From the sequence record PQ249395: DNA of 64,000 nt, one strand, 5' to 3'. Numbering within the stretch: position 1 is the stretch's first letter; the number at the start of each line of letters is the position of its first letter. Of the stretch, positions 27,083 to 28,501 are shown in pieces. The notes below the pieces were generated by a model. That model made no database searches, was not told the DNA's origin, and saw only the letters and a list, made by a program, of their open reading frames with translations. A program made the translations under genes and the position numbers. Source of the stretch: Escherichia phage Pu-Krd-SF1.

Positions 27083-28501
27083 ATGGCTTTTACAGTTGAT
27101 ATAACTCCTAAAACACCGACAGGGGTTATTGATGAAACCAAGCAGTTTACTGCTGCACCCAGTGGTCAAACTGAAGGTGGAACTATTACCTATGCTTGGA
27201 GCGTAGATAATGTTCCACAAGATGGAGCTGAAGCAACTTTTAATTACGTATTAAAGGGACCTGCCGGTCAAAAGACTATTAAAGTAGTTGCAACAAATAC
27301 AGTTCCAGAAGCTGAAGCTGAAACAGCAGAAGCTACTACAACTATCACAGTTCAAAATAAGACACAAACGACCACCTTAGCTGTAACTCCTAATAGTCCT
27401 CCAGAAGGAGTAATCGGAACAGCCGTTGAATTTACTGCTGCCTTAGCTTCACAGCCATCGGGCGCATCTGCTACGTATCAATGGTACGTTGACGGTTCTC
27501 CTGTGGGCGAAGCAACTTCTGCTACATTCAATTACACTCCTTCCACAAGCGGAGTTAAAACAATTAAGTGTGTAGCTCAAGTAACCGCGACAGATTATGA
27601 TGCAAAGGAAGTTACTTCCAATGAAGTATCATTAACGGTTAATAAAAAGACGCAGACAACTACCTTGGCAGTAACTCCTGATAGTCCTGCTGCTGGAGTA
27701 ATTGGAACCCCAATTCAATTTACTGCTGCCTTAGCTTCTCAACCTGATGGAGCGTCTGCTACGTATCAGTGGTATGTAGATGATTCACAAGTTGGTGGAG
27801 AAACTAACTCTACATTTAGCTATACTCCAACTACAAGTGGAGTAAAAAGAATTAAATGCGTAGCCCAAGTAACTGCAGAAAATTATAATGAAAAGGAAGT
27901 TACTTCTAATGAAGTATCATTGACAGTTAATAAGAAGACAATGAATCCACAGGTTACATTGACTCCTCCTTCTATTAATGTTCAGCAAGATGCTTCGGCT
28001 ACATTTACTGCTAACGTTACGGATGCTCCGGAAGAAGCGCAAATTACGTATTCATGGAAGAAAGATTCTTCTCCTGTAGAAGGGTCAACTAATGTATACA
28101 CCGTTGATACATCATCTGTTGGAAGTCAAACTATTGAAGTTACTGCAACTGTTACTGCCACTGATTATGATAGCAAAACTATTACAGCAGAAGGCCAAGT
28201 TCAGGTAACTGATAAAGTTGCTCCGGAACCAGAAGGTGAATTACCTTATGTTCATCCTCTTCCACATCGTAGCTCAGCTTATATCTGGTGCGGTTGGTGG
28301 GTTATGGATGAAATCCAAAAAATGACTGAAGAAGGTAAAGATTGGAAAACTGAAGATCCAGATAGTAAATACTACCTGCATCGTTACACTCTTCAGAAGA
28401 TGATGAAAGACTATCCAGAAGTTGATGTTCAAGAATCGCGCAATGGATACATCATTCATAAAACTGCTTTAGAAACTGGTATCATCTATACCTATCCATA
28501 A
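27083..28501 (+). CDS. hoc: Hoc outer capsid decoration protein with four Ig-like domains
   Basis: 472 aa; repeated ~96-aa Ig-like modules; conserved C-terminal segment ...YIWCGWWVMDEIQKMTEEGKDW... Confidence 0.88.
   Translation: MAFTVDITPKTPTGVIDETKQFTAAPSGQTEGGTITYAWSVDNVPQDGAEATFNYVLKGPAGQKTIKVVATNTVPEAEAETAEATTTITVQNKTQTTTLAVTPNSPPEGVIGTAVEFTAALASQPSGASATYQWYVDGSPVGEATSATFNYTPSTSGVKTIKCVAQVTATDYDAKEVTSNEVSLTVNKKTQTTTLAVTPDSPAAGVIGTPIQFTAALASQPDGASATYQWYVDDSQVGGETNSTFSYTPTTSGVKRIKCVAQVTAENYNEKEVTSNEVSLTVNKKTMNPQVTLTPPSINVQQDASATFTANVTDAPEEAQITYSWKKDSSPVEGSTNVYTVDTSSVGSQTIEVTATVTATDYDSKTITAEGQVQVTDKVAPEPEGELPYVHPLPHRSSAYIWCGWWVMDEIQKMTEEGKDWKTEDPDSKYYLHRYTLQKMMKDYPEVDVQESRNGYIIHKTALETGIIYTYP
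27359..27934 (+). repeat. Tandem duplication (2 x 288 bp) inside hoc encoding two adjacent Ig-like domains
   Basis: Units begin AAGACACAAACGACCACCTTAGCTGTAACTCCT and AAGACGCAGACAACTACCTTGGCAGTAACTCCT; protein units KTQTTTLAVTP...SLTVNK are near-identical. Confidence 0.8.

Follow-up and report, generated by a model that had tools for sequence, protein, structure and literature searches.

An old array of Ig-like domains as the probable source of the four-Ig Hoc of Escherichia phage Pu-Krd-SF1

The DNA analysed here, referred to as the window, is a stretch of 64,000 nucleotides from Escherichia phage Pu-Krd-SF1 (PQ249395). Its hoc gene encodes a head-decoration protein in which one immunoglobulin (Ig)-like domain is present as two consecutive copies, units A and B. 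The gene is very probably a two-unit hoc allele of an old A/B array whose units are shuffled and collapsed by recombination. Because the variant is old and common among sequenced relatives, the four-Ig Hoc is an ordinary allele class, already deposited and annotated, and is not special to this phage.

Every testable criterion identifies the gene as Tequatrovirus hoc, which encodes a head-decoration protein. The encoded protein matches T4 Hoc (PDB 5vf3_Z, 376 residues) with E = 8e-222, and comparison of the open reading frames with annotations reveals the gene order inh-hoc-24.3-24.2-rnlB, which is common to the window, T4 (NC_000866), and Pu-Krd-SF7. The phage itself is a Tequatrovirus and is 99.7% identical across 20 kb to the Escherichia phages Pu-Krd-SF6 and SF7.

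Duplicated domain and architecture of Hoc

The gene and its parts are positioned in the window as follows.

27083-28501, plus strand: hoc coding sequence, 472 residues and stop codon (open reading frame list; match to T4 Hoc, 5vf3_Z)
27083-27358, plus strand: Ig-like domain 1 (D1), residues 1-92 (AlphaFold2 strands 3-91)
27359-27646, plus strand: unit A, residues 93-188, first copy of the duplicated Ig-like domain, without counterpart in T4 (repeat finding, alignment)
27647-27934, plus strand: unit B, residues 189-284, second copy, orthologue of T4 Hoc domain 2 (repeat finding, T4 alignment)
27935-28210, plus strand: Ig-like domain corresponding to T4 domain 3 (D3), residues 285-376 (AlphaFold2 strands 290-376; Pfam Ig_3 and I-set at 289-373; T4 residues 189-280)
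28211-28498, plus strand: C-terminal capsid-binding domain, residues 377-472, corresponding to T4 residues 281-376 and near-identical to T4

A reading made from the sequence alone had placed two consecutive in-frame units of 288 bp at 27359-27934. These coordinates are reproduced exactly, in codon register, and the peptide strings quoted for the two 96-residue modules are correct. Tandem Repeats Finder detects one array at 27347-27940 (period 288, 2.1 copies, 77% matches, score 722), and a separate repeat search returns two 288-nt copies with 77% identity. Units A and B agree at 223 of 288 nucleotides and 76 of 96 residues, corresponding to 77% of the DNA and 79% of the protein. Self-comparison of Hoc, which had been proposed as a check, places this internal repeat well above the other pairs of Ig domains (D1/A, D1/B, D1/D3, A/D3, and B/D3), which share 29-40% of their residues. 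Therefore, A and B represent a true duplication, beyond the similarity of a generic Ig fold.

T4 Hoc (PDB 5VF3 chain Z, 8T1X) is encoded at the same gene position and has a near-identical C-terminal domain. It aligns with the window Hoc in two collinear blocks, residues 1-106 to T4 1-106 and residues 189-472 to T4 93-376, indicating that the window Hoc has exactly one extra 96-residue Ig-like unit, inserted between T4 domains 1 and 2. The lengths given in the sequence-only reading, 472 residues and 376 for T4, are confirmed by this alignment and differ by that one unit, and the window gene is 288 bp longer than the T4 gene of 1131 bp. In DNA, T4 domain 2 agrees with B at 91.7% of positions and with A at 79.5%. 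Therefore, the unit without counterpart in T4 is A, and the domain count of T4, another point to be checked, comes to one such unit, of B type.

Pfam matches (PKD, Ig_3, Ig_2, and I-set) fall on the repeated and following domains. An AlphaFold2 model of the window Hoc, built from a 47-sequence alignment, has a mean predicted local distance difference test score (pLDDT) of 83 and contains four beta-sandwich blocks (strands 3-91, 98-187, 194-283, and 290-376) with pLDDT of about 90. The unit starts at residues 93, 189, and 285 fall in the linkers between these strand blocks, indicating that each unit is one whole domain. When the PDB is searched with Foldseek, the best matches are structures with four Ig domains in succession, such as Dscam1 and ICAM-5 D1-D4; the top 50 matches are multi-Ig cell-surface, adhesin, and complement proteins, and RB49 Hoc (3SHS) is not among these 50. 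The limits of the capsid-binding domain at the C-terminus are taken from PMC10385173, and the proportion of nonsynonymous differences (pN) in this domain is about 0.00 against all Tequatrovirus relatives compared. Pfam, AlphaFold2, and Foldseek thus support the predicted architecture, in which four Ig-like domains are followed by a capsid-binding C-terminus, as had been claimed from the sequence.

Age, prevalence, and order of the units

The codons that differ between A and B comprise 34 with synonymous and 20 with replacement changes, in agreement with the earlier statement that the copies have diverged at many synonymous and some replacement sites, and the mismatches at codon positions 1, 2, and 3 number 12, 11, and 42, respectively. 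Nei-Gojobori estimates for A versus B give a proportion of synonymous differences (pS) of 0.57, a synonymous divergence (dS) of 1.08, and a nonsynonymous divergence (dN) of 0.12, with dN/dS of about 0.11. In an orthologous comparison across 15 phages, D1 and D3 each have a mean dS of 0.29 and the C-terminal domain one of 0.16, and the maximum pS is 0.52. The dS between A and B is far above that between orthologues, indicating that the A/B paralogues are older than the alleles that now circulate in the genus. The duplication had been called not very recent, which is right but understated.

These numbers also bear on whether faulty assembly or sequencing created the repeat, or whether hoc is a pseudogene without a four-Ig product. 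Tandem repeats can be mis-assembled, and the hoc frames of T2, T6, and PST are disrupted in GenBank. However, the two copies differ at 65 of 288 positions, so they are not confusable in assembly; the frame is open over 472 codons, with the low dN/dS between copies given above; and the same 1419-bp gene is present in hundreds of independently sequenced genomes. On the open frame, the low dN/dS, and the many independent genomes, we reject this explanation and give it virtually no chance of being correct.

The hoc query matches 677 phage records in GenBank. Since BLAST joins pieces of single-unit matches into 100% coverage, which masks the unit number, prevalence was estimated from a systematic sample of 60 of the 677 records, 50 of which are full-length Tequatrovirus-type matches. 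The gene is 1419 bp long in 20 of these 50 and about 1131 bp long in 30. The four-Ig gene is therefore carried by about 40% of the sampled full-length matches and by roughly a third of all matching records. Carriers of the 1419-bp gene include PP01, ime09, HP3.1, and PhiZZ30. The 472-residue Hocs of PP01, ime09, HP3.1, Pu-Krd-SF4, SF6, and SF7, and 215Ecol030PP have the same length and the same A-B array as the window Hoc, with 90-98% DNA identity, and the annotations of such relatives read Hoc, Hoc-like head decoration, or PKD domain protein. The top 120 protein clusters, formed at 90% identity, include 81 with one unit (376-378 residues), 30 with two (468-472 residues), and 8 with three (568-570 residues), and several 472-residue clusters represent dozens to 167 member sequences. 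The comparison of Hoc lengths across relatives, which had also been suggested, thus finds that lengths vary and that the 472-residue four-Ig form is common and not peculiar to the window phage. The DNA relatives comprise GenBank records and two metagenome contigs; a scan of IMG/VR gave just 21 loci, mostly distant.

A recent duplication specific to this phage lineage would agree with a gene exactly 288 bp longer than that of T4, but it is contradicted by the A/B dS of about 1.08, by the orthologous A-B arrangement in PP01, ime09, HP3.1, Pu-Krd-SF4 and SF7, and a metagenome contig, and by the prevalence of about 40% in the sampled records. We consider it refuted on these three grounds, with only a trace of probability left to it.

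Neighbouring units have 74-84% DNA identity in every multi-unit gene examined. Across 39 arrays, neighbouring units share 54-82 of 96 residues, and no recent secondary duplication is present in these 39, the closest neighbours sharing 82 of 96 residues. When 168 units are clustered, they fall into three types (A, B, and C) with a nearly fixed order. The A type is first in 38 of 39 arrays, or in 36 by another count, and the B type is second; C-type units close the three-unit arrays and, in a few two-unit arrays, take the second place. We considered and rejected concerted evolution, or gene conversion between the two units of one genome, because A and B of the same gene (identity 0.780) are no more alike than A and B of different genes (0.792).

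The longest arrays seen in the genus are those of slur03 (NC_042129; locus L034, 131-2125), with a Hoc of 664 residues, four domain-2-type units, and six Ig-like domains, and of ESh36 (locus L035, 340-2046), with a Hoc of 568 residues and three domain-2-type units. The single-unit Hoc of vB_EcoM_G50 (locus L033) has 386 residues instead of 376 and is encoded by an 1161-bp gene; the stretch after its domain 3 measures 306 nt versus 276, so a 30-bp insertion lies in or near the C-terminal domain. The hoc frame is disrupted or truncated in T2 (locus L031, MH751506), T6 (locus L036, MH550421), and Yersinia phage PST (locus L026, KF208315). No hoc coding sequence is annotated in the T2 and T6 records, and PST hoc is annotated from an internal start; the three could be real pseudogenes or sequencing errors.

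Variation in domain number among Hoc homologues is already in the literature, with 1-10 Ig-like domains per protein, from 1 in Enterobacter phage PG7 to 10 in Serratia phage Muldoon (PMC10385173). The Hoc of the T4-like E. coli phage PNJ-9 is without domain 3 (PMC11853027). In contrast to these distant homologues, the variation described here is a polymorphism within the genus, with 1-4 copies of one domain type. The Hoc of vB_EcoM_IME341 (locus L006, 601-2010; 470 residues) also has four Ig-like domains and a C-terminal domain, and belongs to a sister group with about 49% identity. Its relatives also vary in domain number (375 residues in VR20, locus L008, and 280 residues in locus L012). In IME341, the duplication affects a D3-like domain (domains 3 and 4 share 59% of residues), and not domain 2 as in the window Hoc, indicating that the change in domain number was an independent event.

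The feature of the window itself therefore matters little, since both the allele class and the variation in domain number are known. What is mildly new is the ordered A-B-C array of 1-4 units, the evidence for a frequent origin of single-unit genes as collapse products, and the location of crossovers on framework identity runs. A full-text literature search, which covers a searchable library only and is not proof of absence, found no paper on the domain-2 array within the genus.

Segment shuffling, array collapse, and the mosaic allele

Units A and B represent old paralogues of T4 domain 2, of which T4 has the B type only, and the genus-wide locus consists of 1 to 4 units of 288 bp in tandem, with a fixed A-B-C type order. 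Each unit is made of an invariant beta-strand framework and a few alternative loop segments, shuffled between phages by recombination. In the mechanism that we favor, homologous recombination at short framework stretches that are identical between units would collapse arrays to a single, often chimeric, unit, and recombination at the same kind of stretch would swap whole domains between co-infecting phages, the window allele being one such swap.

The units share an invariant framework (KTQTTTLAVTP, GVIGT, FTAALASQP, ATYQWYVD, KCVAQVTA, and VTSNEVSLTVNK) and vary at positions 12-16, 22-24, 34, 46-55, 62-68, and 78-84, which in the AlphaFold2 model are mostly in loops or at strand ends. Each variable segment has few alternative versions, which occur in nearly all combinations; for three two-state segments, all combinations are present in single-copy units. 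Such a combinatorial pattern points to recombination and not to adenine-directed hypermutation. Variation focused in a few, mostly loop, segments of an Ig-like domain in a protein of the phage surface might otherwise suggest a diversity-generating retroelement (DGR), with the two units as its template and variable repeats, or another dedicated hypermutation system acting on them, and Ig-like phage proteins targeted by DGRs are known (PMC10743442). However, the unit A bases at mismatches are C 21, A 17, G 14, and T 13, mostly at third codon positions, and the variants are a small set of discrete segments common to phages, as expected from recombination. Judged by the mismatches, which are spread over all four bases, the units do not have the character of a DGR target (the window was not screened for a reverse transcriptase gene), and we regard this origin as exceedingly improbable.

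The unit of a single-unit gene may be A-like, B-like (as in T4), C-like, or chimeric. Scoring with A and B profiles shows a change from A to B along the unit in 29 of 82 single-unit clusters and the reverse change, from B to A, in 10. An A-type residue 22 combined with a B-type centre is found in 33 of 82 single units and in 4 of 39 second array units (Fisher p = 0.0007); protein clusters are not phylogenetically independent and p is uncorrected for relatedness, so that p and the count of 29 versus 10 both overstate the significance, and the A and B profiles are themselves derived from the arrays.

The breakpoints of two chimeras can be located at the DNA level, one of them on the longest exact match between the units.

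27429-27450, plus strand: 22-nt stretch AATTTACTGCTGCCTTAGCTTC in unit A (unit nt 71-92), longest exact A/B match
27717-27738, plus strand: partner copy of the 22-nt stretch in unit B, identical to 27429-27450

The single unit of protein P0099 equals residues 1-24 of the window A followed by residues 25-96 of the window B, with one mismatch. In its DNA (locus L037), the best breakpoint range is unit nt 70-92, coinciding with the 22-nt match at nt 71-92. The unit of locus L038 is of A type up to nt 245-260, which is another identity run, and of B type beyond. A-to-B chimeras with breakpoints on identity runs are what unequal homologous crossing-over is expected to produce. On these sequence patterns, many 376-residue Hocs are probably collapsed arrays rather than ancestors, and T4 is an arbitrary baseline for counting Hoc domains, as many three-Ig Hocs look like collapsed arrays.

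The same data can be set against the possibility that the array was born diverged, by unequal or illegitimate recombination that joined divergent A-type and B-type single-unit alleles of co-infecting phages. The single-unit genes would then be ancestral, and the 23% divergence would not date the duplication. Among single-unit genes, there are nearly pure A types as well as B types, recombination among T-even phages is intense, and the window gene is itself a fresh mosaic. However, the A-B(-C) order is almost invariant across 39 arrays; the event needs a crossover between a unit end and the D1/unit junction, which have few bases in common; and A-to-B chimeras exceed B-to-A chimeras about 3:1 with breakpoints on A/B identity runs, which is a signature of collapse and not of assembly. 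We consider such an origin unlikely, although it retains more weight than any of the other alternatives.

The reading of the gene as a two-unit allele of an old, recombining array has several points against it, among them the limits on p, on the chimera counts, and on the profiles given above. In outgroup Hocs, domain 2 resembles A no more than it resembles B, which gives no polarity to the ancestral unit number. The T4 unit has the pattern 'BBA', shared by 4 of the second units in two-unit arrays; T4 may either have dropped A cleanly or have lacked it from the outset. The C-terminal domain of the AlphaFold2 model is of low confidence and poorly modelled, and the plus strand has no exact copy of the late-promoter consensus TATAAATA directly upstream of inh or hoc.

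A broader proposal, which we put forward tentatively and with well below even odds, is that the domain-2 array is a standing locus of diversification that recombination drives. Loop segments from an old A-B-C reservoir would be shuffled at framework crossover points of identical sequence, which would also alter the unit number between 1 and 4, and the three-Ig T4 type would be one collapse product among many and not the ancestral form. Mucosal glycans or host antibodies would exert the selection that keeps the variety, and arrays would persist only with neighbours at least about 15-25% different, since phage recombination would delete more similar repeats.

The window allele fits into the 472-residue class as an SF4-like D1 joined to an SF7 remainder. 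Its hoc is 98.1% identical to that of Pu-Krd-SF7, with flanks of 99.7%, and all 27 differences from SF7 lie within gene nt 36-291, with identity from nt 292 to the end. The comparison with Pu-Krd-SF4 yields a single difference across nt 1-309 and 128 beyond.

27374-27391, plus strand: crossover interval of the window mosaic, within the TLAVTP codons, a conserved stretch at the beginning of unit A

The pattern of differences flips at this interval from SF4-like upstream to SF7-identical downstream, indicating that the crossover is located here. By this pattern, the window hoc is a fresh mosaic. The exact protein is not found in a collection of 15 billion proteins, and the window Hoc is therefore a new allele of a known class. 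The divergent patch extends upstream into inh to about 26440, and the 1.5 kb downstream of hoc shows no difference from SF7. The patch (about 26440-27373; about 930 bp, covering inh and hoc domain 1) has 54 differences from Pu-Krd-SF7. All three Pu-Krd phages were isolated from piglet faeces in Russia.

Fibre properties and neighbouring elements

Hoc of the T4 type is bound singly at the centre of each gp23 hexamer, and growth does not require it. The T4 capsid carries 155 Hoc fibres of about 180 Å, and virion clustering is pH-dependent (PMC10385173). In the window phage, each of the roughly 155 fibres would be one Ig domain longer, extending about 4-4.5 nm beyond the 18 nm of T4. The computed mass, isoelectric point, and net charge at pH 7 of the window Hoc are 50.7 kDa, 4.51, and -25, compared with 40.4 kDa, 4.74, and -14 for T4 Hoc. 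The fibre would thus be more acidic and present a second set of domain-2 surface loops, and the added negative charge, as calculated from the sequence, could shift the pH-dependent clustering. An effect on mucin-glycan adherence, virion clustering, or antigenicity may follow.

Domain 2 of a T4-like phage Hoc binds MUC2; in PNJ-9 Hoc domain 2, residues N180 to T185 were probed, and S183, L184, and T185 are required for the binding (PMC11853027). In the window Hoc, a motif with these letters and numbers is present at the end of unit A and repeated in unit B.

27620-27637, plus strand: NEVSLT motif, residues 180-185, end of unit A (sequence reading)
27908-27925, plus strand: NEVSLT repeat, residues 276-281, unit B (sequence reading)

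The match to PNJ-9 residues 180-185 is one of residue letters and numbers only, read without an alignment of the two proteins. The residues sit in a conserved terminal strand, and so the effect of S183, L184, and T185 on MUC2 binding may reflect folding.

T4 Hoc is a widely used display and vaccine scaffold, and phage adherence to mucus is modelled on it. The natural Hocs of close relatives, in which domain 2 is present 1-4 times, provide a ready series of length and valency for mucin binding, pH clustering, and antibody recognition. Therapy isolates that differ only in the array may differ in mucosal persistence or immunogenicity, and the unit number is worth recording.

Upstream of hoc, an AAGGA Shine-Dalgarno-like motif is located at 27072-27076. 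A terminator-like element follows the gene.

28506-28521, plus strand: terminator-like GC-rich hairpin AGGGGCTTCGGCCCCT with a T-rich tail, just past the hoc stop codon

In the relatives ATK47 and G50, a terminator is annotated at the same place as this hairpin. A scan for sigma-70 promoters returns fewer sites than in shuffled sequence. The T4 late-promoter consensus has only one exact copy nearby, at 26372-26379 on the minus strand. This copy lies 29 nt upstream of the start of segE and is directed toward segE, away from inh and hoc. The segE-like gene of a GIY-YIG homing endonuclease (25726-26343, minus strand) has a premature TAA at codon 179 (about 25807-25809), where the coding strand differs from that of Pu-Krd-SF7 by one C-to-T change. 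Its open reading frame has 178 residues, compared with 205 in T4 and Pu-Krd-SF7, and the frame is intact beyond the stop.

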